From Yuukianura sp. NJ FZ-2021 (Eukaryota): a DNA stretch of 64,000 bases. The stretch lies in assembly GCA_046563655.1 (NCBI GenBank), contig CM102289.1, positions 3,286,001-3,350,000 of the forward strand, read 5' to 3'. Below, piece by piece: positions 36,608 through 63,418 of this stretch. The stretch's first letter is position 1; the number at the start of each line of letters is the position of its first letter. Position numbers and translations under genes: made by a program. Under the pieces are notes generated by a model. It saw nothing but the letters and a program-made list of their open reading frames with translations, was not told the DNA's origin and did not search any database.

Positions 36608-39499
36608 TCAGACAAAAGAATTACTTAGCGTAGAGTCAAGACAGGGCATATTTGCTAGGTTAGAACTTTTTGTAGTCGTCAAGATTTGTAAATTTAGAAA
36701 ATGTTTCTGAAGCGCATTCCGGAAGTGTGCAAGTGGTTTTCCAATTCCAAGATCCTGAAGTTCAGTCGGTAGGGCGCAAATTATTTTAGCAATTGCAGGA
36801 ATGAAGGCCTTTGAATGGAAATGTTTGTCATTCACAAAAACGTAGGATCCGCTCCGTGTCGATTTCCTTTGTCGTAGGCAGCTTTCAATCTGTAAGATGG
36901 TCTCCTGGAAGTATGGAACTTTGTGAAACTTCAACTTGGCAAAGACTTGAACCAGTTCAAAAAGATTGAGATGAGTGGGAAGTAACCATTCAAGTTCGTT
37001 GTTCAGTTTCTCCATGACGCAGTCGCGCTTTCTTAATTGAAAGATGAATCGAACACTTTTGCGAAAGATTTTGTTGATGCACTGAAACTGTGTTGTTTTG
37101 CAGTTGGCCCAAATGATCAACATGTATCGCAAGATCGGTTGAATGTAGGATGTCACCAATAATTTTCTGTGTTTTTCGGACAAAAGCTTTTGTAGCGGGT
37201 AGAGTGACCAAAGAATTGTGTTGCATCTTCTGATGACGGAGATGTGCTGCTCACACCATGACAGCGTGTTATCGATGATGAGTCCAAGTGACTTGAACGA
37301 GGTAACACTTGTGACGCTAGTGCTTCCTACCTTTAGTTGAATTTGACCAATTGTTTTGATTGTAGTTTTTTTTCCAATTAGTAAAACTTTGGTTTTTTCA
37401 ATATTAAGGGCCATGTGATTATTTCTCATCCATTTGTCTATTTTTTCAATTAGATCTTCCGCTCTCTTAATTAGTAATTTGATGTGTTCCGGTTGAGCCG
37501 CAAGGACAATGTTGTTGTCGTCTGCAAATAATATTGCAGACGCTTCATTAATTATTTCCATTAGGTCGTTAATCATAATGGCGAATAGTAGAGGGCCAAG
37601 TACAGAGCCTTGAGGAACAGACAAAATGGTTTCCCGAGATGTTGAGCGTGTGTTGTTGACTTCGACATGCTGTGTCCTGTTGTTAAGGTATGATTCAAAC
37701 CATTTAGTGGAGATGTTATACCACTTTAGTTTGTCTATCAGAAAACCTTTGTTCACAGTATCAAACGCTTTTTTTAAGTCCAACGAAATCACAAGGCACA
37801 CTTCACTTTGATTAAGATGCGAATATATTATGTTGGTCAAAGCCAGTTGAGCTAATGTAGTTGAATGATTTTGCCTAAACCCAAATTGGGCCCTATGTAA
37901 TATTGAATTGCGGTCCAAAAACTCCGTCAACTGATGATGAGCAAATTTCTCTAAGAGTTTGCCAAGTACTGGTTGAAGCGATATTGGTCGTGTGTCGGAA
38001 GGATGTTGTGGCACTTTCACTTTGGACAATGGAATGACCTTGGAATTTTGGAGTAATGCAGGAAAAACTTCAGTTTCAAAACTTTTGTTAATAAGGTGTA
38101 ACAATTGTGTTTTAATGTTAGGTGCACTTTCACTATGTGAGACAATCCAGTTTGAAATTCCGAATTGATCTTTACTTCGTGATTGTCTGTTGTTCACATT
38201 TCTCCAGATTTTGTAAAATTGATGAGATGTAACAGGCTTGAGTACAAAAGTTTCAGCAGGTGTCTTAAGTGAAGTAGGTTTCGATGGGCAGAGTGTTGAT
38301 ACAAATTGAGGTGTTGTGATGGATGTAAAGTATTGATTGATTTGATTTGCACTGAACGGAAGTTGAGTTGTCTTTGACTTTGATCTTGACCAGATTTTAG
38401 AAATAGCTTTAAAAGGGCCAAGCTTTTCAATGTCAAGATTTAAAGTGTCTTTTTTGTCTCGTAGCACAAACGATTTCACTTTTTTTTTAATACTTTTCAG
38501 TTGGGTAAGGAAGCCTGGATCTGTAGATTTAGTAGTTGCAAGTTGGTCCCTCAGTACAATCAATTTCTTTGTTTCTTCTGAAAGAGTAAGTGGCACTGGT
38601 CTTGGAACAAAAGAAACACTTTTTGTTTTTGCAGTATCGTCAAAGTTTGATTTGATTTTCTGCATGAATTCTTGGAATTCGAGGTTGATATCTTTTACAT
38701 TAGTCTGGAATGTAGTGTAAATGTTCTTGAGGCCGAATTCTTCAAAGTCAAAATTCTTGTAGTCGACATATTTGAACTGTACCCGTGGAACTTGTGGTTT
38801 CATCAAGTTGACTTTTACTAACGTCATCGCATGGTCAGACAGATGAGGATCGATGACGGAATGATCAACTACGATTTCCGGAGCGTTTGTGAATATTAAA
38901 TCAAGTATTGATTCGCCCCTTGTTGGTAGTTGCACTAACTGATGAAATGTAGATGTTGTTTTTTTGACAAGTTGGCGACATTTTGGTGGAATGTACTTCT
39001 GGTTCAAGTTGAAGTCGCCTAGAATGAAAGATTTCTTTTTGTGCAGGCTCAGTTCGTTGAAAAGTTTGTTCATAGATTCTAAATCTTGGGTGAGTATGTC
39101 AGTTGTGTAGTTGGGAATTCGGTAAGCACTTGAAACAATGACGGTTTTGTTATGGTTTAGTTGAATCGAAAGAGTTATGACTTCAAAGTTGCAGTTCTGA
39201 GGTAAATCGATTATTTCAACTTTTGACTTGAGCGTAGAACGGACTAGAATGCCTACTCCACCTTTTGCTTGCCATTCCCTATCCAAATGTAGGAAATCAT
39301 AACCTTCAATTAATCTGGGTGGATTGTTGATCTTGAGATGAGTTTCTGTGATACACAAAACATCGAGATCATAAGAGTCAATCATCATTTTTATTGAGTC
39401 ACATTTTGTGTTGAAGCCACAAACATTTAGTCCAGCTATTTTCAATAGTTTACAGGAAGTCGACGTAGTAGATTGAACAGTAGATGAATTATGGCCTAG
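36608..39499 (-). CDS. LINE ORF2: apurinic-type endonuclease plus reverse transcriptase
   Basis: GLNVCG, ITETHL, GDFN, LDLIF and SDH (APE); QFGFR, LDLKKAFDTV, PQGSVLGP and FADD (RT). Reading frame is open from the ORF1 stop onward. Confidence 0.95.
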   Translation of the reverse strand, partial: LGHNSSTVQSTTSTSCKLLKIAGLNVCGFNTKCDSIKMMIDSYDLDVLCITETHLKINNPPRLIEGYDFLHLDREWQAKGGVGILVRSTLKSKVEIIDLPQNCNFEVITLSIQLNHNKTVIVSSAYRIPNYTTDILTQDLESMNKLFNELSLHKKKSFILGDFNLNQKYIPPKCRQLVKKTTSTFHQLVQLPTRGESILDLIFTNAPEIVVDHSVIDPHLSDHAMTLVKVNLMKPQVPRVQFKYVDYKNFDFEEFGLKNIYTTFQTNVKDINLEFQEFMQKIKSNFDDTAKTKSVSFVPRPVPLTLSEETKKLIVLRDQLATTKSTDPGFLTQLKSIKKKVKSFVLRDKKDTLNLDIEKLGPFKAISKIWSRSKSKTTQLPFSANQINQYFTSITTPQFVSTLCPSKPTSLKTPAETFVLKPVTSHQFYKIWRNVNNRQSRSKDQFGISNWIVSHSESAPNIKTQLLHLINKSFETEVFPALLQNSKVIPLSKVKVPQHPSDTRPISLQPVLGKLLEKFAHHQLTEFLDRNSILHRAQFGFRQNHSTTLAQLALTNIIYSHLNQSEVCLVISLDLKKAFDTVNKGFLIDKLKWYNISTKWFESYLNNRTQHVEVNNTRSTSRETILSVPQGSVLGPLLFAIMINDLMEIINEASAILFADDNNIVLAAQPEHIKLLIKRAEDLIEKIDKWMRNNHMALNIEKTKVLLIGKKTTIKTIGQIQLKVGSTSVTSVTSFKSLGLIIDNTLSWCEQHISVIRRCNTILWSLYPLQKLLSEKHRKLLVTSYIQPILRYMLIIWANCKTTQFQCINKIFRKSVRFIFQLRKRDCVMEKLNNELEWLLPTHLNLFELVQVFAKLKFHKVPYFQETILQIESCLRQRKSTRSGSYVFVNDKHFHSKAFIPAIAKIICALPTELQDLGIGKPLAHFRNALQKHFLNLQILTTTKSSNLANMPCLDSTLSNSFV

Positions 39500-40270
39500 T
39501 CATTTCTGATTGGTGTTAGCAGTTTGAGATTGAGACATGGTAGCAGGGTTATTGGATCGTTTAATTGCTCGGTTGATTCTCGTAGCTTTAGGAACGTCAT
39601 CTTTAAGTATGAGTCTGTCTCCAGATTGAGAGGTCGGCATGTCGAACCGTTTTCCCCAGACAATGTTTCTTTCCTTTCTGGATCTGAAAACAATTTTCAC
39701 TGGAGGAATTCTTGTGCCATTGAAGTTTCCAAGACGTGAGACAGCGGAGGTGAAGATTATGTCTTTTGTTCCAGTCGTTTGCAAGCAAAGTTTTTCGATG
39801 TAGTCGGTAAGAAGAGATTCAGATTCATTTGCCAATTTGTTAAGTCCGTGGAGGATGAGATTAGATTTCCCAAGTTCGATTTGGATCTGCTCAATTTCCT
39901 TGTCATGTACTGAAAGTTTGATCCCGTCTGCATCTTGTCTAGATTCTACAATTGATACTCGATTTTGAAGAGAAGTGATCTGGGTTGAGAGGTCAGTAAT
40001 TTGCTGTGAAAGTTTGAGATTGTCTTTTTGAAGATCAATTCGAAGCTGGTTGATAGCTGCCACAATGGTTTCGTTTGTCATTTTTTGTTTTTTTGGGCCT
40101 AAGGACGTAGAGGTATCGTCAATTGACGGAGTTGCCTTCCGTTTCGCACTTCTCGTGTTCGCTTGATTAGCGGTTGGTACCGGAGGAATTTTAGTAGGTT
40201 CGATTTGCGTGTCGATATCAGAAGTAGTGTCACTGGTTGATGAATTCATTGGAGTTGTTTGTGGTAACAT
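39500..40270 (-). CDS. LINE ORF1 (coiled coil plus RRM-like nucleic-acid-binding protein)
   Basis: 256 aa; heptad region LSQQITDLSTQITSLQNRV followed by NLILHGL...RLG...PVKIVF, typical of LINE ORF1 RRM; lies upstream of ORF2. Confidence 0.8.
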   Translation of the reverse strand: MLPQTTPMNSSTSDTTSDIDTQIEPTKIPPVPTANQANTRSAKRKATPSIDDTSTSLGPKKQKMTNETIVAAINQLRIDLQKDNLKLSQQITDLSTQITSLQNRVSIVESRQDADGIKLSVHDKEIEQIQIELGKSNLILHGLNKLANESESLLTDYIEKLCLQTTGTKDIIFTSAVSRLGNFNGTRIPPVKIVFRSRKERNIVWGKRFDMPTSQSGDRLILKDDVPKATRINRAIKRSNNPATMSQSQTANTNQK

Positions 40271-43009
40271 ATAACATTGGTTCCATGTCAGTTTCCTGAA
40301 AAATTTGCAGTATCTCTTTAGCGGTATACCAGTCAGCTGTTTTCGTAGATTGATAATATTATTAAGGTGGTTGCTTATCTTAGTTTAGCAGATGAACAGG
40401 ATTAGCAGGAACAAGGATTGACTATGCAATCAGTCAAACAATTGTTCCCGTCACGAAGTAATGTTGTCCAGTAACCAGTGTTATCCAGTGGAAGAGGTAC
40501 TTGACCACGTCATTATTAAACTAGCTAATGATTCAAAAATTAAAATTATTACTTTTCAACACGCATCTAAATCTTGTTTCAAACTTTTTGTCAACTTAAC
40601 AGTTCAATAGGATGTACGTTACAAATTCAAAATTTACTTAGAGTTTAGTTTTTCTCATTTTCTTTAATAATATTGAACAAATTTGGAAATACTTATTTCC
40701 AGAAAAATGAAAAATATATTTTTCATTCTAAAATCCTCTGTGACACTTTGCTTCAGAAGCTTAAGCTTGAAGCAAAGTGTCATGTATGATTCTGGAAATT
40801 CCAGACTGGAATGACCCTCATGGGCAAGCAGCGAAATCGAATGTGAGTATTTGGAAAGAAGAAACCGGAATGACTACCGGAAATAATCCAAAATGATAGG
40901 CTATGTGAAGCCCCATGTGTTTCTGGATACTACTGGAATTGTTTTTTGTTTGGCCTGGAATGATGCGGTGTGGAAAACTAAAGTTATTTTGACTGGTGTG
41001 CCTCATCTTTTCAGTTTCACTACAACTTCATCTCTGAAGAAAAAAAATCGTGATCATTTTTCGCCTTCCTTTCGAAATGCTTTTCACGTCACGTCATTCA
41101 TCTCACTTTTTTCTAGATTCAGACTCGGAGCTTCAGCTTCTGAGACACCGGAACAGTAAAACACTTCGCACTACTGCAATTCATCACTTGCCCTTTCTTC
41201 ATCTTCTTCGTCTAGTATTCGATTTTTCACATAAATTTCAGTATCTTCCTCTATACTTGTAATTTATTTGAGCAGCTTTACTTTTCTGTTCAGCGTAATG
41301 TTCAATTCCGTAAGAGTTCAATAAGCTTCAATAATCATTGGAAAAATCGGGAATTTAGTAAAATGACATAGTGTTATCTTTGGTTTCAACTCCATTCTGA
41401 AATAGTAGTTGCAGGAAAAAGCTGAATATGAAATGGAACATGTTGGAAAATTTTTGTTTAGTCAGCTATATGTTGCCAACCAAATGTCAAACATGGCGTT
41501 CATTCTTGTTTATTTCCAGATATGGCCACAAGGCTTTTGTCGGAATCCACTTTCCATTAGTTACATAAAACCATATTTTGCCCGGAAACTTTCATTTCGA
41601 ATTTCAAAGCCCGTCGTGTATTAATATGAGTTCCAAAATGAAAAAGCAGGATATGTCTTAGTTTTTACGTTCGCTTTTTATATTGCATTTACTTTACTAA
41701 ATTATATTATTCATGTATGTACTTCTAGTTTATGTACTTTTCAATGTTCAGTTTACGCGTTGAGCATTTTAAGTTACTGAATTGATTGCTATTGCATTTG
41801 GAAAATGAATGGGAATGGAGCTGTACTAGCTTTTGAATTCAGCAAGCATTAGACGAGGAAGGAATTTGAGAATGTGAACAAATCGTTTTGGTTCTAAATG
41901 AGGCGTGGAACAAGGCATTTGTCTCTGAATTAGCATTTGACTTTATTTAGGCAACTAGCTAAATTAGGAGCTTCTCCAATGTCATGAATCGATACTTGGC
42001 ACCACCTACAGTGAAGTCTTACATCCGCTGGATGCCTCCATCTCCTCCTCAGATCTTCAAATCTCTGTTCTTCCTGCATAGCATCACTTTCCATTTTCAG
42101 AAATCACCAAACACATTCTGAATCCTGAGCAGAATTGGAATTGGACTGATGGAATTCCAATCCAGGCGGAAGTATGTTCTTCTCCCGTCATGTGGAAGTT
42201 TTCTTCCTATGAAAATATTTTCTATCCCAACGGAACGCCTGCTTGCCATTCAGTCGGAGCTTTACCCGTGTCCATTTTCCTACAAAGGCGGCTGCTTTTG
42301 ACTCTCAGAGTGAAAGTGGACGTATAGCATAGTTTTTTTTTCTAGAAGGAATCAGATACACTAGAAGGGCGGAGGGGAAACGTGAGAACAAGTAAGAAGG
42401 GCTTGTTTATCCAAGTGATTTCTAGTGTAGAGGGAAGTAGAGTACTGAAGGGGTAACCACAGCCAGTGGTCGGCTAAAACTGAGAAAACTTGGGAAGAAA
42501 GTGGATTCAAAGAGCCCGCTTTCTTCGAAGGCCTCTGCAGAACTTATTGATTTTTTTTCTATCCGTCTTCTTAATGATTCGAGGGCAAACAAAAGCTTGA
42601 CCAAATACGAGGGAACGGAAAAAAAGAAGACAAACTGCTCTTGCTTTTCATCATCATTTGTTTCCTTTTCTGCCGCACTTGAGGAGAGAGGAAGACAGAT
42701 TGAGACTGTACGAAAGCAGTATTGTGCTGCTGGACGTTTTCACTGGGATATGAGCGCAGAACACGAACAGGGTTCACTGTAAGGCTCCTTCTCTAATGAC
42801 AGCCATCATCATCAACTGAATGCCGGCAAAACTCTTCATTTCTGATTCAAAGTTAAAGCATAGCTTCTTCAACCCAACTGTTTTAATAACCTACATTACA
42901 AAAAAATGCAATTTTTTTGATACTTTGCAAAGGGTATTTAAGGAGGTTTACATGAAACAAAATATTTGCAGCCTTTTCTATTATTTTCACTTACTGTAAC
43001 TAGTTCGTC

Positions 43010-43276: not shown

Positions 43277-46200
43277 CTAAGGAATTCTGGTTTATTTCAA
43301 CCAACATTTTTCAAAACGATGCGTGACATCATATTTTTCATTTACGCATGATGTGATGTAGGCCATGCGTGTCTGGTGTCGATTTTTCTTCGTAATCAAC
43401 CTCCATAGAACGAGCGTTTTGATTTGAAAAGTTTTGGACCGACATTTTCTTCTGTACAGAAACTAACATACAGGAAGGCACTACATGGAGGCAGATGTAG
43501 AACTTTATATGTAGTGAAAGTGAGTGTCAAATCACATTAAGCAAAGGAAGTGTGACATGAAACATATATGATCTTTTTGCCCTCCTTCTCCGAATCTTCT
43601 TTCCTAGGAACGAAGAAGAGAAAACTTGTTGAATTTAGACACTTCTGAACTGCTGCTGCTCTTCCATTGGTTGGAATTTAGCGCTTGAAGCTAAAAGCCA
43701 TTTTGTTTCCCATTTAAGCACTACAACGTGTACAAATCAAGAAAAATGATATTTTTTTTTTCTTAGAAAAACTTTCTATTCTTTGATTTCACTCTACATC
43801 GATTTTCCATTTTGATTTTTGAGGAACTCATGCTGTGTTGATATGATCAACTAAAAGATCGAATCTGAGATCCATTTCCTCTACTTTGTTCCGCTCCCGG
43901 CACAATTCCCACTTTTCTTCTAGCCGTATGCTCATGTTCCTTATATTTTCATGGCTTTCTCCATATGCTTTCTCTTGAAAAGGTTATGTTAGGTTAGGTA
44001 TAGAACGTATGTACTAGACAAAACGTGTTTCTATTGTGTGGTAGCGTGGACTTTAGACTGCTCCACCCGATACCGAAACCAGCCGCGTTGTCGTCCTCCC
44101 TTCTGCGAATGTGTGATTTATTAGAGAAGCAGCAATTGGTGGAGACGCATATCGATCCCACGGTTCTCTATTCCAATAATTCTTTAGCAGAATCCATGGA
44201 TCCAAAAACTGCCGCTTTTGGAACCGACTAGGTTAGGCTACCAACCTAATGTTAGGAGCTTCAACAACCAAAATGAGCCTTGAGCTTCAAACCAGTCTAC
44301 CAAAGAAGGTTCCTTTGACGAGCAATGTGGAGCATCACATTGTGGCTTTTGAGCACGTTGCGGCAAACGAGCATCTCAAAGTAGTTAGTAAAGGCACATT
44401 TAATGTGCCTAAGGAGAAAGTATTATACATTTTCCATTAAATTTCTCCGTCTTTCGATAGCTTCCTTTTTGACAAGGCTTGAGTCGGGAGTGAATGGGAC
44501 GAAAGAAGACGGAGTGCCGTCCTAGTGCCTGCTTATTCCATTACTTGTCGAATTAGAGATACATGATTTAGCAGGGAATGTTGCCAAGGAGAGGATTCTA
44601 TTATAAGGGGATTCTGGCGGGAAACAGGCGGCGCAAGGAGAAAGTCGAGCAGCACAAGCATAAGCCTCAAAAGTTCCATTCATTCTCAAGTGCTGGCAGT
44701 ATTATCTGTATGGATCCCAGTTTACTGCCAATCAATTCCCAAACCACTTTTCCGAGACACAAAATCCTTTTTGTTGAGGTATCAATTAGAGTGATTAGGT
44801 TTTGTTTTCTACACGGTCAAGGAAAAGCTAACTTTCACCACGAGTAAACAAAAGATGACTTGTAAAGGCAGTAACTAGATACTTAGTATAAACAATAACA
44901 TGTGGACCATTAGTTCTGTAGACTTCCTAACTTTGTTAGGTTATTTAGAATCACATGTTAGGTTTTGAGCATACATCAACGGTATGGCTCGAACTTCTAT
45001 AATGCAAGTCCTGGAACCCCAAAAACTCAATTGCTCAATCTATTGTTCCAATTCCATTGGAGAAACAAAAGGACTTTCGAAACCAGAAAATTAACATTTG
45101 TAACAATTTCGGGTTCGGAATAAAACAAAAGTGCCTACAACAGCAGAAAATGTTTGATACTAAAAGTTAAGAGTCAAACCAATAGGAATTGTGCAAATAC
45201 AAGACAATTAGTTTGAATTGTTTGAATTGAGTCTAACGGATGAGGGGCGTGAACTCTTTGTTAGCACGAGGCTTTTGATGTGCTAACATAAGTGGAGTTT
45301 GTAATTAAACTGGAAACACCTCTTTAACTTTAGACTAATTAATATTTAATTGTGCTTTAGGGTCGTAGTGCTTCAAAAAATGTTCGATTAACCTCCCAGC
45401 CTAAAGTGTTGACTAAATTACATTTCGACTTTCTTATATATTCTAGTGGGAACTTTCAAAAAGTAAAAGAAAAGGAAGAAAGAACTTTGGATTTCTCTGA
45501 TCTTGAAGTGGAGGAAGAGGAAGTGGATGGTTAAATGAGAGAAGTTGCTCCTGGTCTTTTGGTGCGTATAATTAATGAGTAAGTTGGAGTTTTTAGCACC
45601 TCACCCAAAGGCTAAGAAAAGAAAGTTAGGTTAAAATTCCGGAAGTATGCCAACTTCCATGAGAAACCGCTTTTGAATAATTTTTATATTAAAACTTTTT
45701 AAATTTGGAAACGGAGAGAACTTTCGGAGGAGAGTTCTATTAATTTGTAATGTAAAGACAGTTGAAGTGGAAGTGAGTAGAAAACCAACTATTACTTTTA
45801 ACTTCCTTCTTTGAATTTTAATAAATTGTTAGCGGTTAGTTCTAATACACACTATGCAACTTTGGCTAAGGAGGAAGACGTTTTTCAGTAAAAATGAGAA
45901 AAATTTGTATCTTAATGTTTTCATTTTTCATAAGTTTTTTGGCTTCCTAGTGGCATGCTGGCTTATCTATTAGACTTTAACGGATTTAACTTCGTCAACA
46001 CTTTGTTTAACAAGGCTTGAGGTAGGTTTTAATACTTTTTCCCAGGCATTTTTTAATCAAAACCCACCACATGAACCGTATCCAAAAAAAACTCCCACAT
46101 AGGTGTGAATTTATTACTCAAGTCCAAAAAAAAGTTAATGCTCTGTTACTAATATTTCCTAAACAGGCGGATTCTTTGCCAGCATAAATTATTGCTGTCA

Positions 46201-46326
46201 TGCTTACAGAACTTTCTCCAAGCCTAGGTGTGATAAATATCAGACGTTCGATCATGCCTCTGCTGTAAAAAAAATGCTTTTTAGTAAAATCAAAGTAAAC
46301 AATTTCAAATTGCCGATAAAAATTCC

Positions 46327-46418
46327 AGTAGTGAGTAAGTTGGGACAACAGCACCCTCCTGTTTTTAGTACATCCACGGGGGTTAGTCGGTCGCAATATT
46401 GGGGAGGGAAAAAACTCA
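46327..46418 (+). repeat. Left terminal inverted repeat of the Polinton
   Basis: AGTAGTGAGTAAGTTGGGACAACAGC...AAAAAACTCA; reverse complement of 63327-63418 except one base (46391). Confidence 0.97.
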
Positions 46419-46420
46419 CA

Positions 46421-46533
46421 ACAAAAAAAAATGTCGTCAACAAAAAAGTCGACAACAAAAAATGTCGACAAAAAAAGATCGAAAACAAAAATGTCGACAA
46501 AAAATATCGATAACAAAAAAGTCGACAAAAAAA
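46421..46533. repeat. Subterminal array of seven RTCGAY-like cores separated by A-tracts (~15-bp period)
   Basis: Cores at 46433, 46448, 46464, 46478, 46493, 46506 and 46521 (four exact GTCGAC). Confidence 0.85.
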
Positions 46534-46564
46534 CAAGTAGTGAAATTTTTGTATATAAAATTCG

Positions 46565-46704
46565 AACATTGACTCTAGCCTAGTGTCTAAGTGCTTGTAA
46601 CTACTTCTCTACGGCCGCTGGTTCGAATACCACACGGGTCAACGCTTGTGGTTAAGAAGTTACAAGTACTTAGATACAAGACTGGGGTCAATGTTATTAT
46701 TTTT
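46565..46704 (+). ncRNA. Candidate Pol III (A-box/B-box) hairpin RNA, tRNA-derived / VA-RNA-like
   Basis: A-box-like TAGCCTAGTGT (46576), B-box-like GGTTCGAATACC (46620), 38-nt complementary arms 46565-46602 and 46658-46695, T5 terminator at 46700-46704. Confidence 0.55.
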
Positions 46705-46917
46705 ATTTTAAGTTAAGGATTGAGTTCTTGGAAAAATATCTTTTCTCAAGAAAAACGTTTTTTTTTTCTTGAAAAGTTCTCAAAATAACATTTCTTTAGA
46801 AAAAACGTTTTTGAAAAAATTTCAAAATAGCATTTCAAACGTTGTCCAAGTAGTACTTAAACAGCGAGTTTTGAGACTAGCAATCATCAGTTCAGAAACC
46901 AGTCTCAAACTATAAGC

Positions 46918-47769
46918 ATGCGGGGATTCAGGTCATACATGGAAGTTTCGGAACCGTTTATTGACATGGAAGATGTCATCGCAGTCAAGATTTCTGGACA
47001 TTCGATTCTTCTGACAGCAGAGGAACTGCCAACCGTGGTGGAAAAGCTAGTAAAAGCATACATAGCCGCAGGGGAAATGATGAAGGATTTACCACACTTT
47101 GAAACAATCATGGCAACTAACCGCAAGAATGGATTCCTAAAGTTATTTCGTCAACAGTCACCAGCAGAGTTTCAAACACTCAAAGAAAAGCTGGAGCGAC
47201 CGCTTCTTCCTATCCACTGCATCACAGGCAATGTGAATCGGGTGTTTCTCATACGTAGCGGTCGTCCACTTCCCATCGAAATCATGGACATTCCACTTCT
47301 GGTGGAATCACTTCTAAAGTGTGGCTGCTTTCCGACCTCATATACAGAAAAGTATCTGGATGAGCTCATTCATGAGTCAAAACGTGAATACATGAGAAAG
47401 CTACGCGATAAAATTCTCAACACTCGTGCCAACAGAATTAAAGAAACACTTGGCAAGGCTGCCGGTTTAAAGACGAACAAGAAAGTTCATCCATACAAAA
47501 AACCAAACGTGTTTCACCGATTTGCCTGCTATTTATCTCCAGAGTCTTTCATTTTAAATCCAGCCTACTCGAAGCATGTTCTGGACGTTACCAAACATCA
47601 ACAAATTCAAATTAACAACCAAAGACGTACTCCAAACCATGACTTTAACGAGCACTTTAGACTGGTCCATCTTAACATGTATCGTCAATCGTCATACTCT
47701 GATGATACAGTTCTCAACATTATTTTTTATGGTGTTAAGCAAATTTCAGCTTTTGACATTTTTTGTTAA
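46918..47769 (+). CDS. Polinton hypothetical protein, 283 aa, with two copies of an uncharacterised motif
   Basis: Clean ORF with TATA-like box and TCAGT upstream and AATAAA downstream; motif shared with ORF 48256-48672. Confidence 0.75.
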   Translation: MRGFRSYMEVSEPFIDMEDVIAVKISGHSILLTAEELPTVVEKLVKAYIAAGEMMKDLPHFETIMATNRKNGFLKLFRQQSPAEFQTLKEKLERPLLPIHCITGNVNRVFLIRSGRPLPIEIMDIPLLVESLLKCGCFPTSYTEKYLDELIHESKREYMRKLRDKILNTRANRIKETLGKAAGLKTNKKVHPYKKPNVFHRFACYLSPESFILNPAYSKHVLDVTKHQQIQINNQRRTPNHDFNEHFRLVHLNMYRQSSYSDDTVLNIIFYGVKQISAFDIFC

Positions 47770-48255: not shown

Positions 48256-48672
48256 ATGGTTGAAGCATACGCTGCAGGATTCGTGAGCAAGACTCTTGAA
48301 GATCGTGTCAAATGCTGGTGGAAGGTAGAAGATGGAGAATACAAAGTCTTTATCAAGAAGGATCGCTACTACACAACAATCGAAATGAAGGAAATTCCAT
48401 TTCTGGTTTCAAAGCTGATTCTCTTCTTTCTCTCGACGGGAAATCCAATAAGCGAGCTACCCAACTTTGAACTATTGCTGTTGGAATGTAAGGAGCGCTA
48501 CGCTGATAAGGGTCAACAAGCAAAGAAGCCGAAAATGGACATTGTGGCTGAAGCGATGAGCAAAGCTGTCTGGAACCGTAAATCTCTCAAGCCCCGCTTG
48601 AATACAATTCCTGAAGAAGACTCTGACGAAGTCGAGGGAAAATACTGGATCGCCGAAGATACTAAATTTTAA
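48256..48672 (+). CDS. Polinton hypothetical protein (138 aa), paralogous motif to ORF 46918
   Basis: First ATG after TATA-like/TCAGT is at 48256; contains KEIPFLVSKL...G...ELPNFE. Confidence 0.7.
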   Translation: MVEAYAAGFVSKTLEDRVKCWWKVEDGEYKVFIKKDRYYTTIEMKEIPFLVSKLILFFLSTGNPISELPNFELLLLECKERYADKGQQAKKPKMDIVAEAMSKAVWNRKSLKPRLNTIPEEDSDEVEGKYWIAEDTKF

Positions 48673-49573: not shown

Positions 49574-50002
49574 ATGTACAAATGCAACTTGAGCGAGGAC
49601 GATTTCTTTAGAATTTATAATCCCCAGCGTGGAGGAGCTGTTGGCTCGGACGGAGCCGTATTCTTCAAAGCCAATCAGTTTCGTCAGCGTGGTCATGGAA
49701 TTGGCGGGATCTTTGGTTCAATTTTTCGAAAAGTTTTACCATATGTGACCAAATATTTAATGCCTCATGCTAAAACTGCCGTTGCTGGTATAGCTTCTGA
49801 TGTGATTGGCGGGAAAAAATCTGTGAAAGAGGCTATTTCTGAACACGGCTCAACCGCTTGGAAGGGAGTACTTAAAGGCGTTGCAGACGGGATTCTTTCT
49901 ACTCAGTCTGGATCTGGACGTTCAAGGAAGAGGAAGCAAAAACGGAAAGCAAGAGCCGCTCCCAAGAAAAAGAAGCCAAGAAATATATTTGAAGAACAAT
50001 GA
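49574..50002 (+). CDS. Putative virion core / membrane-active protein with protease-cleavage-like Q-x-G-[G/x-G] sites
   Basis: QRGG, QRGHGIGGIFGSIFRKVLP amphipathic segment, QSGSG and a highly basic tail; lies between minor and major capsid genes. Confidence 0.7.
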   Translation: MYKCNLSEDDFFRIYNPQRGGAVGSDGAVFFKANQFRQRGHGIGGIFGSIFRKVLPYVTKYLMPHAKTAVAGIASDVIGGKKSVKEAISEHGSTAWKGVLKGVADGILSTQSGSGRSRKRKQKRKARAAPKKKKPRNIFEEQ

Positions 50003-51300
50003 GTTCCAAACACGCCCCTCACCCAGAAGTAGTTAGAAGTGAAACCGACATATTTAGTGAACCAGAAATGGACGTTAGTCTTCAAAGTAGTGGAATGTTT
50101 GAGTACCATCCATTGTCAGCATTAAATGAAAATGGAGGTCCAATTTCTTTTCAAATCAAAGGAAATGACGTTCACTATGTCGATTTAAGTGAAACTTTGT
50201 TATACGTCCGCTGCAATATTTCAAAAGCAAATAGTGATAAAATGGACGAGAGAGCCACCATGCGAATCGCTCCAGTCAACAACTTTTTACATTCCTTGTT
50301 TCAGCAGTGCTCTGTGTTTCTAAATGAAACACAAATTACTCCAACCATGTCACTCTATCCGTATCGGGCCTATATTGAGACTGTGCTTGCATATGGAGGA
50401 GATTACAAAGATACCCAAGCAGTTACTGCTCTTTACTTGAGAGAGGAAGAGAATTTGAGTGACACTGACACTTCCCACAAAAAGAGACAAGAATTAGCAG
50501 CCAAGGGCTTGGACATGATTGGACGACCGTTTGCTGACATCTTTGCACAAACTCGCTACTTGCTTCCTGGAATCGACATTAGAGTTACTTTCAACCGCTC
50601 CACCGAAGAATTTGCACTCCACTCTCAGGCAGACAATACAAATCGCTACAAAATCAATATTACTGAAGCCAGACTTTTAGTTAAAAAACATACTCTGTTA
50701 CCGAATATTTTGAATTGTCATTTGAAAATGTGGGCTAATGGACAGCCGGCATGCTACCCAATGAGACGGATTGAGATGAAAACGTACAGTTTACCCCTTG
50801 GCACTGTGTCAAATGTGAATGAAAACTTGATTAATGGACTACTTCCTGACAGAATTATACTTTGCCTAGTTCAAAGTGAAAAAATGAACGGAACTCTGAC
50901 TACAAATCCATTTGACTTTAATCCTCCAGAATTGAGACAAATTTCCGTCACAGCAAACGGAGAACAACTTTATCATCAGGTTTACCAGTACAACAGTGAT
51001 GGCGATGTTCGAGTTTCTGAAGCATACTATGGAATGTTTAGCGGTCTTGGACTGTGTGCTAGCAATGAAGGACCTGCTATTAGCCTTTCCGAGTTTACAA
51101 ATGGAAAGGCGTTTTTCATTTTTAACCTCAGAAACATGAATCAAGGCTACTGTCCCCCAAGACACGGAAGTATAAAAATCGTCGTTCAGTTTGCAAAACC
51201 TACCACTGAGGCTTGGAACGTTGTCTGTCACGCTGACTTTCAATCTACTCTGTATATTGACGAAGGAAAGAACGTGTTTTTCAAAGACTATTCACACTAA
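49999..51300 (+). CDS. Major capsid protein (double jelly-roll, Polinton PY / hexon-like)
   Basis: 433 aa, beta-rich; PVNNFLHSLF, YPYRAYIETVL, QTRYLLPGIDIRV, LPDRIILCLV and NPFDF match Polinton MCP as recalled; directly upstream of the protease. Confidence 0.88.
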   Translation: MSSKHAPHPEVVRSETDIFSEPEMDVSLQSSGMFEYHPLSALNENGGPISFQIKGNDVHYVDLSETLLYVRCNISKANSDKMDERATMRIAPVNNFLHSLFQQCSVFLNETQITPTMSLYPYRAYIETVLAYGGDYKDTQAVTALYLREEENLSDTDTSHKKRQELAAKGLDMIGRPFADIFAQTRYLLPGIDIRVTFNRSTEEFALHSQADNTNRYKINITEARLLVKKHTLLPNILNCHLKMWANGQPACYPMRRIEMKTYSLPLGTVSNVNENLINGLLPDRIILCLVQSEKMNGTLTTNPFDFNPPELRQISVTANGEQLYHQVYQYNSDGDVRVSEAYYGMFSGLGLCASNEGPAISLSEFTNGKAFFIFNLRNMNQGYCPPRHGSIKIVVQFAKPTTEAWNVVCHADFQSTLYIDEGKNVFFKDYSH

Positions 51301-52906: not shown

Positions 52907-53927
52907 ATGGACACCGATCTGAAACAACGATGGTTAAACACTTTACTACCTGGAAGTTTTTCTGGAGCAATTGGGTTTCAAAAAGATTCAAACACTAAGG
53001 TGTCTCCACACCGCGTCGGGAAAATTTTGAAGCAAATCCCAAGTTATCAACTACATCGACCAGTTCGATATCGGTTTCCACGTCGGAGAGTTTACGTTGG
53101 AGGCATGCACGAACAGTATTGTGCAGACTTGAAGGACATTCAAAACATGTCGGGAGTCAATAATAAAAAAAGGTTAGGTTAGGTTGGGTTAGGTTAGGTT
53201 AGGTTAGGTTAGGTTACGTTGGGTTATGTGGGTTAGGGTTTTTAAAAACTCGAATTTGTTTTCTAGGTATTTGTTGGTGGTTATTGACGCTTTTTCAAAA
53301 CAAGGCTGGATCGAGGCAACTCCAAACAAGACAGGACCAGTAGTTCTTTCAGCATTTAAAAAAATTTTAGCGCGCAGTGGTGGAAAGCCAAAGAGAGTGC
53401 AAGTTGACAAAGGTTCTGAATTTCTTAATCAACACATGAAGACGTATCTGAAGCATGAAGACATCAAACTATTCTGGACACATTCTCCATTAAAATGTGT
53501 GATTGTGGAACGTTTCATCCGCACACTATTCATGAAAATTCAGCGCTACTTGACACATAACAGAACCAAAAAGTTTGTTGATAAATTGACAGATTTTGAA
53601 AATCTGTACAATCATGCATATCATCGAAGTATTAAAATGGCGCCGTGCAAAGTTACTGAAAGGAATGAGGATGAAGTACGACGCAACTTGTACCCGGAAG
53701 TTGCAGTGGACTATAAAAAGCCTAAACTCAACGTAAACGACCTCGTCCTTGTCGCCAGAATTAAAAAAACGTTTGAAAAGGGCTACTCAACAAACTATAT
53801 TGACGAAGTTTATCGAATTGTGAGAGTTATAGCAACTAATCCATACGTTTACAAGTTAGAAGACCTTGAGGGTACCCCTATTTTGGGTAGTTTTTATGAC
53901 AAGCAACTACTGAAATTGGATCAGTAA
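52907..53927 (+). CDS. Retroviral-like (rve, DDE) integrase, two exons (52907-53172, 53267-53927), 308 aa
   Basis: Splicing gives YCADL...NNKKR|YLLVVIDAFSK, QVDKGSEF and VERFIRT (D-D-E). ATG in CCACCATGG context. SH3-like C-terminus; no chromodomain seen. Confidence 0.93.
53173..53266 (+). repeat. 94-nt intron largely made of (TTAGG)n-type repeats
   Basis: AG|GTTAGGTTAGGTTGGGTTAGG... about 14 pentamers degenerating toward the 3' end, then TTTGTTTTCTAG|G; removal restores the integrase frame. Confidence 0.85.
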
Positions 53928-54199: not shown

Positions 54200-55081
54200 T
54201 TATTCATTGACATAAACATAACAATTTTCGGGAAAAATGCTACTTCTAATTCGATAGTCGTCCTTTTGTGATTGAGTCAGATCAATTAAAAGATAGCCGT
54301 AGGGCTTTGCCATGCTCTCCTTGTATGCCAAGTCCATTGTCGCGTTCTTTTTTCCTCCATTCATTTGTCGTCCAAGGCATGAAACAAAAGCAGAGTCTCG
54401 TGGATTCTTCATCAGGACCAAGTATTGACAGTTGAGTGTGATTTCTCTCAAGTTTTTATGGAAAAAGTTTTGAACCAGAATAATCAGAGACACATTTCTG
54501 TGATGAGAAGTTCTCGTGAAGGCTGCTCCAACCTCTCCCTTCTTCCCTGCTTCATGCATCAAGTCATCCAGAACCATAATTGACGGTCTGTCAGTACCAT
54601 CATGCCATTTCTCGGGCAGTCCATGAACAAACTGAATTCCAGGGATTTTTGTTTTTAGTTCTCCAAATAGCCCAGACTGCCATTCCGTGTAACAATAAGT
54701 TACATTTGCAATTCCACTTGAAGTTTTTACAACTTCGTTTCTTCGAATCAAAATTTCCTTGACAAGCGTGCTTTTGCCTGTGTTTGTCATTCCGCTCACA
54801 CACATTGTAAACGGTGCCACAAGTTGCAAGTCAATATCGTCTCCCGACCGTGGATGCTGAAGTAGAGTGGCGGCGGCGGTAAGGGCGGCGGCGGGGGCGG
54901 GGGCGGCGGCGGCGGTGGAACTCCCTCCATCGGTGGGGCCCGCCCCACCGCTGGCTGGAACCACCCAGGATGTGGCGGCGGTGGTGGGAGAGATGGAGAA
55001 ACATTTGAAACATGTCTTCTCGTGACGCTTTGCAACGTCAGAACGCGAAAATAATTTACCACAGCGAGAGGAGACCTGCAT
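54200..55081 (-). CDS. A32/FtsK-like DNA packaging ATPase
   Basis: PFTMCVSGMTNTGKS (Walker A), IMVLDD (Walker B), SHHRNVSLIILVQN and YGYLLID. Confidence 0.93.
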   Translation of the reverse strand: MQVSSRCGKLFSRSDVAKRHEKTCFKCFSISPTTAATSWVVPASGGAGPTDGGSSTAAAAPAPAAALTAAATLLQHPRSGDDIDLQLVAPFTMCVSGMTNTGKSTLVKEILIRRNEVVKTSSGIANVTYCYTEWQSGLFGELKTKIPGIQFVHGLPEKWHDGTDRPSIMVLDDLMHEAGKKGEVGAAFTRTSHHRNVSLIILVQNFFHKNLREITLNCQYLVLMKNPRDSAFVSCLGRQMNGGKKNATMDLAYKESMAKPYGYLLIDLTQSQKDDYRIRSSIFPENCYVYVNE

Positions 55082-55299: not shown

Positions 55300-58200
55300 T
55301 TAGGCTGGAATATCTTTATGTCCAAAAGCTAAAGTGTTTACATTATCTACAGCGTATCTCTTGGTGTCCAATCCGTTGAGAGCCCTCTTCATGGTTACTT
55401 CTGTGAAAATTCGGTGTTCGACGCTTCTGAAACCGCGCATGGTAACCATAGTCTGCACATTCTCCTTGAGGACTCGCTCATAGTCTTCATACTTGACCTG
55501 ACCGTTAACCGCTGTTTTTGTAATTCCCTTTGCCTTCTTGGTATACTCATCCTTTAACAGCCATGAACCGTCCGACTTCTTCTGATAAATAGTTCTTCCG
55601 GAGAGGTCACACTTGGCGGTCTGGATTTTGAGACTTCGAATGGTGTACATCTTCGGTCTTGGACAGTACACATGCGTGATAACGGCACCAGCAGCCTCAT
55701 CCTTGAATTTTCCCAGAACTTTTTTGTTGACAGGGTCGTGAAACTTTCCGAATTGTGGATGATCGGCTGGATACTCGCTCATATCGTACAATTCCTTGTT
55801 TTCGAACATGTCCTGGTACACATCCTCGGTTTGAATGTGATAAATGAATGAATCTGCAAGGAAAAAATTGTTTTTACATTTAGCGTAAAAAATTTTGACA
55901 AAAACTAAAAGTAGTTTATACTTACCAGTATCGGTGTATATTAAGCGGCACTTGTCTCCATATTTTGCCTGCATGCCAACCCTGTGATGATGATACATGA
56001 TGCTCTTGGCTAGCTCAAGTACCGTGACTCCTGTGAAGATTGGCTTGGATAGTGTCACTTGAAGTTTCTTCATCATAAAGACACAAGTCGTTTCATTTAT
56101 TGGAATCACGTTCTGGACTGTAGGTTTCTTATTGTAGTAAAGCGCCTTCTCAACCGTTGTGACAATGCGAACATTCTGACGATTACGGACTTGCTCGATT
56201 GTCTTTCCAAATGCGGAGTTGTTCAGCAGCTTCCAAAAGTCCTTGGCAAAGTCACTGGTGGCTTTTTTTTCTCATTTCCGTATTGAAGTCAATAAAGTCC
56301 TTCATCCAAGCGTGCTGTGTGAAGGAGATACCTCTGTGAATTTTTGTGACTTTAACCCCCATTGCCAAGTATTCCTTGAGAATGGCGTGATGAAGGATGT
56401 AGCTTTTTTTGTTGTTCAAATCTGCAACAAGTTTTTTCACTTTGAACAATCCGGGTCCAGACTTGAGGTCTTCCATGAGTTGATGCTGATGAGCAGAGAG
56501 CTCGTCCAGTGTGACAGTTCTTGCAGTAGGAGCTGGAGGATAATCATTAAGCCGATCATGGAGTTCGGGGTCAATTTCCAGGTCAACCTCTAGTAAATAT
56601 CCAGTATCCTTCACCCTGTCCGTTTCTGCAATGAATCCGTCAATATCTCCCAAAATTTTATCTATTTGAGCCTGAGTCAGCCAACGAAAATCTCCAACGG
56701 GAAGCGCTAGACTCATTGCTTTTCCCTAAAAAATATAATAAAATTAATTTCTGACATATTTTCATTAAATGAAATAAATTATGAACATATAAGTTACTAA
56801 CGTATAAATTATTCGCGTCAATGTAAATGATATAATAGTTGGGCTCCTCCGGGTTATACTCGTCGCCCATGTAAGGATGGTTTGCAGTTGCAGAACGTCG
56901 AGATCCCACACACACGAATCCGCCTAAATTAAAAAGAAGTGGCTAGTTTATACCAATTTCAATTATTTTCAATATAATTTCTATATAATTTCTTACCTCT
57001 GATCGCATGCTCTAAGAAACAATGCATCGTAGGGTCGCTGATTAATTGCAGAACAACTCCAGACTTTTTTAGAGCACAATCAATGGCCATCATTGGAAGA
57101 GAGTAGTAATGACCCAGTTCCAGACCGTAACTGTCCATCATAAGCTTCCGAACGCCTTCCATAACGTCAGCTAGAAGGGAGACATCCAGGCGAACGTAGA
57201 GGTCATGCCACTCACCCATGTTTTTGATTTTGAAGCTTTCCCAAACCTTCTGGGCATGTTCGTAAACTGTATCTTGAATTGGTGTTTCGGTCATGTCATT
57301 GAAGAAGGCTTCTTTTGGAGGTAAACTTGTCATTTCAAAGTCTTCACAGGATTTCATAAGTGAGTATGGGTAGGCGCCTTTCTGGAAGAGAAGATCGATG
57401 TTGGCGCCACTGTCGACTTCCTGTTGGAATTCTTGTCGGGTGACTGGAAAGGTGGCATTTGGGTCTTGACGCATTACCTTAACCAAGCCGTCTAGGGATT
57501 TGAGTGTGAAGCCGAGACTGTCTGTAAATCGTAGTTTGTACTTTTCACGTCTTCTAGCATTCCCGACAATGTCTTCGTCGTCTTCTTCTTCTTCTGCTTC
57601 TCCCGAATACTCTGGAGTTACTGTTACACACAAGTACTTCTCGCTACTCTTTGGAATAACGTCAACTTTCTTGATGATTTTGTCTTCTGTGAGCTTCCCC
57701 ATTGATTGTATCAGGAAGTGAACGTCGTAGGAGGATAAGTTGTGCAGGAATACTGGAAATTCCTTTTTGATCTGAGCTTCAAGATTGCAAAATTGATGTG
57801 CCATACCAATGTAATTGAAAGGTGGAAGGTGTGTATGGTGTCGCACTCTTGTTTCACCGAAACAAAATGCTTTTTCACAAAAACAGCATTTTGTTTCGCG
57901 TTCTGAGGCTTCACACTGTTCTCGGGTCATGTTTTGATCCAGCATTCTCGGAGCAATCTTCTCATATTCGTCAACTTCTTTTTGAAGAAATTTGGAGTAT
58001 CTGAGAATGCTCTCAACGAAGTGTGCAGCTACGTCTTCATCATCGTCTGTCATGTGATAGCACTCTCCATAGCGACGGTTACCGTTAAAGTCAACGCAAA
58101 CCCATGCATATCCACATGGCTTGTGGATATTAACACGACCGGTGTTTTCCTTGACTTCTTTTTATTTTGATCCAGTCATTTTTGCTTTGTGCCGTTGGCG

Positions 58201-59748
58201 GCAGACTTCGTGTTCACATGTAGAGTCAAACTTGTTGAGAAACGCTTCAAAATCAGCGTAGAAGCGAAATGGAATGGGCTGAGTTCTAGCCCATTTGTCA
58301 AATTTCAACTTGCACTTATCCCCCTCTGGGTATTTGACTTTTTGAAGCCCCAATGCAGCACAGTATGGAATATGTTCTTTTAGCGTTTTTGCAAGTGTAA
58401 AGTTTGAAAGACAATTTCGACAAATGTGCAACGTGTGGTGAACATTCGGAGGCTTCATCAGCGCTTCAAGATTTCGAATTAGAAGAAAGTGAGCGTTGTT
58501 GCCTTTCATCAGGCACATCAAGTCCATGTGAATTTGTTTGGATTCTTTCGAATTGTAGAGAATTGAAATATTTTCCTGCATACATTTGAACAAGTCGAGG
58601 TCTTCCTTTTGGGTGGCCTTTGACCTTTGACGAGTAGTCTCGTTTTTTCGCGGTGGAGGGGCTGGAGCATCCATGTCATAGCCGAGAACTGTTAGTGAGA
58701 TGTTTGGATTGAGTTGCTCGAAGCGTGGCAGTTGCTGTAGGGACATTGGCCAGTGTAAACCTTGAGTGTTTACCTTTGACGCGTGGGGGGCGTAAGTTTT
58801 GACCTTCTTGTCCACTTTGTAACGATTTCTTCCAAGAGTCGCTCCGACTATTTTATCATGAGCGAGCACTGCCCAAAGGAAGCACTTATTTTGAGAGTTT
58901 GACGGTGTTACTTCACTATTGTCAATGTTTAGCAATGTTTTGTTGTGTTCGGAAAGAGGGAATGGCGTTTCAATAAAAGTTCCAATTTTGGTAAATTGGT
59001 ATTTGGCGGTGACGAATTTAAACTCGGAAATATAGGCCAAGTCCCACCCACTTCCCTCATTTGTAAAATTTTCAATTTGGTTTGACATCTGATGACCCAT
59101 AATATTCCACACCTTTGGAATACTTTCATCAGTGTAAACAAGATGACGAAAAGACGTGAAACAGCCGCGGTTGGTCTCGACGGTGCCGTTAATGTAAGAC
59201 TTTGTGAAATTACATACCATTGAGAAGAATACTTTGACGTTCTTCCATTTCTTTCTGTCTTGCTTGATACATGCTGCAGATGAATCGTAGACACACTTTA
59301 AAAAATCGCGTTCATCGACACCATTTTCACATTTAAAGTCTTCAAATACCGCCCTGTATTGTGTCACCGTGTTTAGCGATGTGAAAAGTGGTTCTACGGT
59401 TATTGGCTCCAAATTTGTTGGAAGTCGACCTCCATCTTGCGTCAGATCAGAGAAAAAATCTGGATGAACTTCGTAAAAATGTTTTTGCATTTCATCGCGA
59501 CACGGAAATGTCAGATTGCATGGTGGACATTTCATTTCACGGTACATGGAAAGAACGCCTGGGCCATCTGTTGGCATCTGTGGAAGTTGTTGTGTTGCTT
59601 CGCTCACAGTCTCGTCCTCTTCATGCTGAATGTGAATGTGAATGAGCAGCTGATTTGCGCATGGAAACTTCTCGTTGCAGATTTCGCATGTGTGGCACCC
59701 GCGCTTAGATGATGGACCCGGAGCGGGAGATGCAGATCTTTTCGCCAT
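55300..59748 (-). CDS. polB: Protein-primed family B DNA polymerase, about 1408 aa after splicing; this copy has an in-frame stop and a +1 frameshift
   Basis: YADFE (ExoI), HNLSSYD (ExoII), KGAYPY, IR|GG, DANNLY|G, KLLNNSAFGK, YTDT|DS, PKMY. Introns at 56924-56996, 56726-56801 and 55854-55925; TAA at 58162-58164; extra A in the run at 56263-56270. Confidence 0.95.
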
Positions 59749-62287: not shown

Positions 62288-63061
62288 TTAGTTACGTTTG
62301 CTCAAACGCTGAAGAGCTAAGCGACGACGATATATGTTTAGCTTAAAAAAAGCAGCAGATTGTTTCAATTCCTTCCGACGACGAATCCATCGTTGGAACT
62401 TTTCTTTGCGCAAACGTTGCAATTTTTCTTCGCGCATTTTTAATTGATATTTTCGATGAGATTCTTCCAACTCTTTGTCAAATTCAATGGATGACTCCAG
62501 AAGTAGCCGCCGGAGTTCCTGATTTCTCTCCCCACGATGTCGTGCGTCTTCAATACTTCCAAGGGCTTGATACGTTTCGTATCTGCATCCGTACGTCTCG
62601 TATCTGCAGCTGTAGCGATGAGGCGTGATGTTGATTACAGTGTCATCCCGAAAAATGCCGCGCTCAAAGTCGAATTTTTCGGTGAGGGGTAGTAGCTCTT
62701 CGATGGAACAATTTTTGAATAGTGAAACTTCGACTGACGTCCTGAGTGGTGCAATCGCCGTCACAAAGTTTTTCGCCGTAAGGACGCGTCCAATCGGAAA
62801 ACTTTTTAGAGCCGCCAGCACAACTCTAAACATTTGTTTCTTCTTGAATTCAAGATGGACGATATGTGTCTCACCAACACTTATCATAAATGGGGTGTAC
62901 TCTGCAACTTTGGCAGCCATCTTGTCAAGCATTGGCTTGAGTATGGCTAAGGAATCTGGAAATACTTTAGCCAGTTGCAAAGCGCTAGACCTGTCCAAAT
63001 TTGAAAATATTTCTAATTGGCACAGGTATGGGAGCTGCTCGAAATCGAATTTATATGCCAT
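62288..63061 (-). CDS. F-box-containing protein with basic coiled-coil C-terminus
   Basis: N-terminal FEQLPYLCQLEIFSNLDRSSALQLAKVFP fits the F-box consensus L..LP.E....IF..L....L..L..V; first ATG at 63061. Confidence 0.7.
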   Translation of the reverse strand: MAYKFDFEQLPYLCQLEIFSNLDRSSALQLAKVFPDSLAILKPMLDKMAAKVAEYTPFMISVGETHIVHLEFKKKQMFRVVLAALKSFPIGRVLTAKNFVTAIAPLRTSVEVSLFKNCSIEELLPLTEKFDFERGIFRDDTVINITPHRYSCRYETYGCRYETYQALGSIEDARHRGERNQELRRLLLESSIEFDKELEESHRKYQLKMREEKLQRLRKEKFQRWIRRRKELKQSAAFFKLNIYRRRLALQRLSKRN

Positions 63062-63326
63062 TTCGACAATAACAAATTTACTTTGCAATTACTGTTTTTA
63101 AAAAGTTTTTTTCAGTTGTTGACGCGGCAAGAGAGAAGCTGAAAATGAACAACTTTTTAACTTTGTAATACACAAAAATAAAAAAGTATTTGTTTTTGCT
63201 CCGGGCGTTGGAGAATTCAAGGAATTGACAAGTTCAAACAAGAACTTTCGTTTAAAAGTTCTTGGAATTTGTTAGGCCTCGGGTGTTGGAAAATTCTAGG
63301 AATTGTCAAGTTCAAACAAGAACTTT

Positions 63327-63418
63327 TGAGTTTTTTCCCTCCCCAATATTGCGGCCGACTAACCCCCGTGGATGTACTAAAAACAGGAGGGTGCTGTTGT
63401 CCCAACTTACTCACTACT
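63327..63418 (-). repeat. Right terminal inverted repeat of the Polinton
   Basis: Reverse complement of 46327-46418 (91/92 identical). Confidence 0.97.

Follow-up and report, generated by a model that had tools for sequence, protein, structure and literature searches.

A hairpin with RNA polymerase III-type motifs inside the left end of an animal Polinton: a candidate non-coding RNA gene

The window, by which we mean the whole 64-kb stretch of DNA that was analysed, carries a 17.1-kb Polinton in an animal genome. The element has terminal inverted repeats (TIRs) flanked by a target-site duplication, an rve integrase, a protein-primed family B polymerase (pPolB) and a capsid protein whose named relatives are the 'F54H12.2-like' protein or 'major capsid protein' of springtail, scale insect and scallop (Table 1); the earlier note, which had spoken of a Polinton here, is borne out. 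A match to a packaging ATPase in the element was weak (Pfam). The host is recognisable as an animal from the flanking DNA, where partial coding sequences for a Cys-loop receptor channel, a sugar transporter and a LINE-type reverse transcriptase were identified. Polintons belong to a virus lineage considered a relative of adenoviruses. They are viewed as both transposons and viruses, and to our knowledge almost nothing is known of their expression or of how they handle host silencing.

The polymerase region (55300-59748, minus strand) consists of four ORFs 108-242 nt apart, split by introns or breaks, and its N-terminal ORF weakly matches C2H2 zinc fingers. Neither the first ORF of the element nor another at 48256-48672 matched a Pfam family; their N-terminal parts are alike by eye, and tblastn revealed no relatives of these two left-end ORFs in 80 metagenome Polinton loci. 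Adjoining the right TIR, an ORF of 257 aa (62288-63061, minus strand) has a weak F-box match (E 0.0057, below the Pfam cut-off) and, from its sequence, may be a Polinton cargo gene. In the host flank, the ORF of a non-LTR retrotransposon (36608-40384, minus strand) has endonuclease and reverse-transcriptase domains.

Table 1. Positions of the features of the Polinton and of its left end, in window coordinates.
Feature	Position	Strand	Details
Left target-site duplication ATTCC	46322-46326	.	5 bp; same bases at 63419-63423 after the right TIR
Left TIR, begins AGTAGTG	46327-46421	.	95 nt, 98% complementary to the right arm
Subterminal tandem array	46427-46533	.	15-nt unit, 7.3 copies (Tandem Repeats Finder); left end only
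Imperfect palindrome, putative hairpin RNA body	46565-46695	+	131 nt; pair table and fold
A-box-like TAGCCTAGTGT	46576-46586	+	7 of 8 specified consensus positions; 11 nt inside 5' hairpin base
B-box-like GGTTCGAATACC	46620-46631	+	8 of 9 specified consensus positions; 5' side of apical stem
T5-A-T4 tract, possible Pol III terminator	46700-46709	+	begins 4 nt past 3' hairpin base
First ORF	46918-47769	+	283 aa, without Pfam family; 223 nt downstream of hairpin, same strand
Capsid protein ORF	49999-51300		318 relatives in protein collection
rve integrase	53226-53927		Pfam
pPolB	56959-58053		Pfam
Right TIR	63324-63418	.	95 nt; no hairpin copy beside it

Read inward, the left end is composed of the TIR, the 15-nt tandem array, an imperfect palindrome (hereafter the hairpin), an AT-rich spacer of 223 nt and the first ORF. 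The hairpin starts 238 nt from the terminus, which puts it 144 nt inward of the left TIR, in agreement with its earlier placement adjoining that repeat. With a GC content of 40%, it forms a compositionally distinct unit within an AT-rich spacer. It matched only itself in the window, where no second copy was found, the right end included, and other matches to its arms in the window did not exceed 11 nt, the T-rich tail excepted. At the right end, two copies of a different unit of ~60 nt were seen by eye at about 63195-63325, and the ends of the element are asymmetric inside the TIRs. Repeats beside only one TIR are reminiscent of the packaging repeats at the left end of adenoviruses.

A script listing every pair showed that the palindrome is ungapped, with its centre at 46630. 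Its outer 38 columns hold 32 Watson-Crick pairs, four G-U pairs and two others, exactly as counted in the earlier note; the inverted-repeat arms have 35 Watson-Crick pairs in the outer 42 columns, and the full set of 65 columns comprises 45 Watson-Crick pairs, 10 G-U pairs on the plus strand, four C-A oppositions (G-U on the minus strand) and six mismatches. Folding as RNA, which had been proposed as a check, gave a strong hairpin on the plus strand, at -66.2 kcal/mol as compared with -31.8 +/- 3.4 kcal/mol for shuffled sequences (z -10.0; 0 of 200 shuffles as good). The minus strand folded at -47.6 kcal/mol (z -5.9). Both the minimum free energy (MFE) and the centroid fold are a single unbranched hairpin, and the MFE fold of the plus strand contains 54 pairs, 44 of them Watson-Crick and 10 G-U. 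When all 64 kb were scanned in pieces of 150 nt, the energy of the hairpin ranked second-lowest of 1597 scan windows. The one stretch of lower energy, 54801-55030, is GC-rich and coding, and its z of 0.16 indicates a composition effect; because this sole competitor folds no better than its shuffles, 46565-46695 is the only significant hairpin in the window.

It had been argued that G-U pairs compatible with one strand betray selection on an RNA. The bias proved to be weak evidence of this kind, with 10 G-U pairs on the plus strand against four on the minus strand (one-sided binomial p 0.09), or four against one in the outer 38 columns, and a strand-biased mutation (transition) process could give the same picture. 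The gap in folding energy between the two strands is real, but the case for selection at the RNA level is weak.

The motifs reported earlier, an A box and a B box 44 nt apart followed by TTTTT, were all present on the plus strand of the hairpin or just behind it (Table 1). Their start-to-start spacing is tRNA-like. The B-box-like motif has nine canonical bases, after which the final CC is shifted by one base, so that it departs from the consensus at its 3' end. The A- and B-box patterns were generic consensus sequences, the allowed spacing was 30-60 nt and the thresholds were set after the motifs had been seen; at these thresholds neither strand of the window has any pair other than that at 46576/46620. 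Chance pairs arose at a mean of 0.1 per window in 40 block shuffles, and five pairs occurred in the 338 kb of the 80 metagenome Polinton loci. The rate in these loci predicts ~0.002 A/B pairs per 131-nt stretch, both strands counted, a generous figure given that the thresholds were post hoc. The only A/B pair of the window lies within its only significant hairpin. No T4 run interrupts the hairpin, and the TTTTT of the 3' tract occupies 46700-46704. The minus strand likewise meets a T4 run just beyond the hairpin, T runs flanking both strands of the AT-rich spacer, and the T run therefore does not set the strand. From the sequence, the geometry of the motifs fits a type-2 Pol III unit with a predicted start at the hairpin base and a predicted stop shortly beyond it, and the motif set is coherent on one strand and unlikely to have come about by chance. 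A TATA-like TATATAAA at 46552-46559 was set aside, since 53-100% of the depth in four DNA runs belongs to the variant 46556 T>G.

As the best explanation of these features we suggest that the hairpin is a family-specific, type-2 Pol III hairpin RNA gene owned by the Polinton family, a reading that we hold tentatively and regard as somewhat more apt to prove wrong than right. In such a gene, the internal A and B boxes would serve as binding sites for TFIIIC, transcription would begin at the hairpin base (~46565), some 11 nt before the A box, and it would end in the T5 run. The predicted product, an RNA of ~135-140 nt with both ends paired in a ~42-bp stem with few defects, could be a substrate or a competitor for host dsRNA processing, as an siRNA- or miRNA-like precursor or as a decoy. 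We infer from the DNA each of these properties, namely transcription, Pol III dependence, the RNA ends, processing and an effect on RNAi. In favour of a Pol III gene are the highly non-random hairpin, which folds better on the plus strand (-66.2 against -47.6 kcal/mol), and the sole A/B pair in 64 kb with its apparently coherent geometry on one strand. Against it are the B box that is off consensus at its 3' end, the T runs that flank both strands, a G-U bias of only p 0.09 and the post hoc thresholds.

Searches for known RNA families also count against a Pol III gene, since they gave no cloverleaf above noise and no Rfam match. A tRNA-like GACTC/GGGTC pairing, described in the earlier note, does exist but is not above chance. 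ARAGORN at default settings found no tRNA in the window, and a tRNA-like cloverleaf reached only the level of noise: with the threshold relaxed to 80% one was returned at 46570-46643, among 37 such structures in the window as compared with 20-34 in shuffles. A cmscan search of the whole window against 4227 Rfam families, the type of covariance-model check that had been proposed, gave no match at gathering score, VA RNA included. In E-value mode on 46400-46900, MIR821, MIR2646 and RUF6-5 aligned to the hairpin at 28-37 bits, far under their cut-offs of 70-249; these are generic long-hairpin models. The tRNA model had no match in this run, in which E-values were scaled to 4227 families and a very weak match could escape.

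A kinship with adenovirus VA RNA had been proposed, and it was not supported, as there was no Rfam match and the hairpin is unbranched, without a central domain of the VA type. The internal A and B boxes of a VA RNA are found here at the level of motifs; its succession of terminal stem, central domain and apical stem is not. The two are alike in that the boxes stand at tRNA-like spacing, the ends pair in a terminal stem that is followed by a T-run terminator, and the predicted length (135-140 nt) is of the same order as that of VA RNA, which is roughly 160 nt long. They are unlike in that the hairpin has no covariance-model match and no central domain, and lies 144 nt inside a TIR, whereas VA RNA genes are located mid-genome. 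With tRNA genes and the heads of tRNA-derived SINEs the hairpin shares an A/B pair at 44-nt spacing, but it has neither a cloverleaf above noise nor a match to the tRNA model.

A second group of viral genes offers a comparison. In bovine leukaemia virus (BLV) and foamy viruses, the genes for Pol III-transcribed pre-miRNAs consist of a stem-loop with A/B-like elements and a terminator at its 3' base, placed in the terminal-repeat region (PMC3993851, PMC7693620). The miRNA genes of the foamy-virus LTR were predicted from A and B boxes together with a stem-loop with a 3' terminator, and the predictions were confirmed by northern blot and by mutation of promoter and terminator (PMC3993851). The stem-loop, the A/B-like elements and the T run at the 3' base are all found in the hairpin, which has the same feature set and is likewise located in the terminal-repeat region of an integrating virus. 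By analogy, the fact that this feature set predicted retroviral Pol III miRNA genes that were then confirmed (PMC3993851) argues for a Pol III gene. The retroviral products differ in being short pre-miRNAs or dumbbell pri-miRNAs in vertebrate retroviruses, whereas the present case is a single 131-nt hairpin in an invertebrate-type DNA element. The design of the hairpin resembles that of VA RNA and of the BLV and foamy-virus Pol III pre-miRNA genes, by analogy and not as a sequence or structure homolog of VA RNA.

Other copies of the family were sought in public DNA runs. Five runs hold parts of 46300-47300, four from one 'organism A' sample and one from 'organism B'. Comparison of four runs (X1-X4) over 46200-47100 at a likeness of at least 80% returned 212, 159, 52 and 65 contigs, respectively, and their spread over all identity classes indicates that the family has many variants. 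Among the pieces listed, the hairpin was joined to its upstream flank in a contig covering 46500-46699 (32 differences, seven gaps) and in another covering 46528-46644 (15 differences), and to its downstream flank in one covering 46616-46762 (24 differences, four gaps); a further contig covered 46564-46680 with seven differences. In most of the listed pieces the hairpin was connected with flanking Polinton sequence. These links to the flanks show that the hairpin belongs to subfamilies that differ by ~15%. The hairpin therefore recurs, linked to Polinton flanks, in a multi-variant repeat family under two organism labels. We conclude that it belongs, as a fixed component, to the left subterminal region of a single multi-copy family of animal Polintons, and its linkage to these flanks in diverged copies is consistent with a Pol III gene of the element.

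The T tract was also followed in these runs. In X2, TTTTTA is inserted behind 46701 (depth 2730 of 2789), and the variant 46710 A>T accounts for a depth of 2958 of 2958 in X2, 2058 of 2086 in X1, 785 of 883 in X4 and 0 of 11.3 in X3. Among the 40 of 138 variants listed, none of which lies within 46557-46701, the tract 3' of the hairpin is kept or longer in other copies, and within that scope this supports a Pol III gene.

Two contigs from the same sample, of 794 nt (X1) and 1023 nt (X2), matched only 46563-46696, at 86% identity with 19 differences and no gaps, and continued into unlike sequence on both sides; this was the only hairpin-only context among the pieces listed. It represents a conserved island within a Polinton that has diverged further, which would fit a Pol III gene between diverged flanks, or else a free-standing copy. 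These two contigs are the best argument for a different origin, in which a foldback or MITE-like repeat, possibly a SINE-like one bearing a Pol III promoter, inserted into the spacer of an ancestor and has since hitchhiked without a role in the Polinton. The hairpin is a discrete unit of 40% GC in an AT-rich spacer, with inverted-repeat arms; it is short and non-coding, as MITEs and foldback elements are, and these are able to sit inside other transposons. A and B boxes are a hallmark of tRNA-derived SINEs, and more distant Polintons lack the hairpin (see below). We nevertheless consider such an insertion unlikely. By eye, no target-site duplication surrounds the hairpin (TTCG lies to the left of 46565 and ATTA to the right of 46695), no cloverleaf remnant or 3' tail of a tRNA-derived SINE was found at the hairpin in the window, and the hairpin differs from MITEs and foldback elements in its set of Pol III motifs on one strand.

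Sequencing depth bears on the same question. Summed word depth is not a copy number, as the tool itself warns. In the host flank it was 135-270 in X1, 255-261 in X2, 9 in X3 and 68-71 in X4, and in the subterminal repeats (46479-46571) it rose to 10.8-13.0 thousand in X1 and 8.7-12.8 thousand in X2. The hairpin bins stood at 7.9-10.9 thousand, 7.3-12.6 thousand, 140-208 and 1.5-2.0 thousand in X1 to X4, respectively, and the next bin downstream (30 bases) at 3.0 thousand, 3.0 thousand, 15 and 1.1 thousand. The depth of the hairpin thus exceeds that of the next 30 bases downstream, and in X1 and X2 it is similar to, and not above, that of the adjacent upstream subterminal repeats of the Polinton. 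A large pool of independent copies is therefore not indicated. The earlier note had held that many dispersed copies outside Polintons would point to a host insertion; at least one copy does lie between unlike flanks, but the hairpin shows no depth excess over Polinton flanks.

More distant Polintons were retrieved with a capsid alignment, which gave 80 metagenome loci and a single IMG/VR locus (L081), 81 loci altogether; in IMG/VR the motif pattern gave no matches and the capsid protein alone no relatives. Few of these loci reach the left end, and the closest relatives (L001, L002 and L033, with capsids 70-74% identical) are short contigs that end ahead of it, as does the contig of P0001, in the same range of identity. 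In the 80 metagenome loci blastn gave only chance-level matches to the hairpin (E 0.3 or worse), and a single-sequence covariance model, run on 82 sources with speed filters on, found the hairpin itself and one match of E 6.1. The idea that sister elements should carry the hairpin was thus upheld for copies of the same family and not for the more distant loci (0 of 81), and the lack of a homolog in the latter counts against a Pol III gene. Three relatives delimited by TIRs appear to be complete, namely L011 (6018-21174, TIR 173 nt), L041 (2-10483, TIR 86 nt) and L081 (1-12321, TIR 135 nt), with capsid proteins 33-46% identical to that of the window. In none of the three did the terminal 1 kb at either end contain a single hairpin of this kind, a further point against a Pol III gene; the left end of L041 (120-330) was rejected as one because its fold is branched, with z -3.1 on the plus strand and -1.5 on the minus strand.

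One of the distant loci, L020 (capsid 44% identical), has a near-perfect palindrome of 215 nt (146-358) that is unrelated in sequence to the hairpin and lies 90 nt ahead of the first ORF in the same (capsid) gene block. It folds at -125.2 kcal/mol on the plus strand (z -16.6) and -112.0 kcal/mol on the minus strand, and no second copy was found among the loci. Since it is near-perfect, contains T4-T5 runs and lacks an A/B pair, it looks like a feature of the DNA level, and as a positional analogue it weighs against a Pol III gene in the window. It is also the best argument for reading the hairpin as a cis element of the Polinton left end that acts as double-stranded or cruciform DNA. Such an element could be a symmetric protein-binding site or a promoter or insulator module before the first gene, or it could, with the 15-nt repeats, contribute to packaging or replication signals; the promoter or insulator variant could include TFIIIC at the B box without productive transcription. 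The hairpin is found at the left end only, with the TIR and its subterminal repeats on one side and the first ORF on the other, and this agrees with a role of this kind, as do the significant fold on both strands and the retention of the hairpin with its flanks in diverged family copies.

Palindromic DNA is also tied to the ends of other elements of the Polinton class. A preprint describes 52-nt palindromes at the TIR tips of endogenous virophages and a Polinton-like virus (PLV) from a halophilic protist, and proposes that they prime replication (bioRxiv 10.64898/2026.07.28.741278). This lends some support to a cis element, but those palindromes adjoin the target duplication and are mostly in elements without pPolB; the one in the window is found at a single end of an element with pPolB, starting 238 nt from the terminus. 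The hairpin is thus neither at the extremity of a TIR nor adjoining a target duplication, as a terminal palindrome would be. A cis element would, moreover, leave unexplained the A/B pair on one strand at canonical spacing and the flush T run, three TIR-delimited relatives lack such a palindrome, and L020 is a single example that may itself be an insertion. We regard a purely DNA-level role, like a hitchhiking repeat, as improbable.

If the hairpin is a Pol III gene, as we tentatively prefer, a wider claim can be drawn from the sequence, and we consider it doubtful: that an animal Polinton family may carry at its left end a long-hairpin RNA gene of its own, transcribed by Pol III, a convergent counterpart of the VA RNAs and the retroviral Pol III pre-miRNAs and the first non-coding RNA gene described in a Polinton, which would blunt or redirect the small-RNA defence of the host or regulate the element. 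Our literature search found no Polinton non-coding RNA of such kind and nothing that pairs Polinton with VA RNA; papers pairing Polinton with RNA polymerase III were, to judge from titles and abstracts, general transposon reviews. A hairpin RNA transcribed by Pol III in a Polinton would provide a concrete and testable handle on the interplay between Polintons and RNAi, and would extend to Polintons a strategy known from adenoviruses, herpesviruses and retroviruses. Were the hairpin a DNA palindrome or a nested foldback repeat instead, it would be ordinary.

Motifs of the same type in other distant loci were examined and set aside. L036 has GC-rich stem-loops and an A/B-like pair at 1345-1620, between the ATPase and penton-like genes, which have no Rfam match and are unrelated to the hairpin, and the A/B-like motifs of L075 and L079 lie within the capsid gene.

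The public DNA runs also provided a view of the left terminus. One contig crosses the junction between flank and TIR (46200-46356, one difference), and others, of 357, 1124 and 30505 nt, follow the flank no further than 46324, with 5-6 differences, before continuing into non-element sequence. These may represent an empty-site allele or a paralogous site, and an insertion polymorphism is possible. The outer 30 nt of the TIR have a flank-like depth in X1 (175), X3 and X4, and in X2 a depth of 705 as compared with ~260 in the flank, about 2.7 times higher. Over the whole stretch, depth peaks in the inner TIR bin 46386-46416 (30 thousand in X1), and several different loose contig ends are found before 46362-46377. 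The subfamilies seem to share the inner TIR and to differ at the tips.
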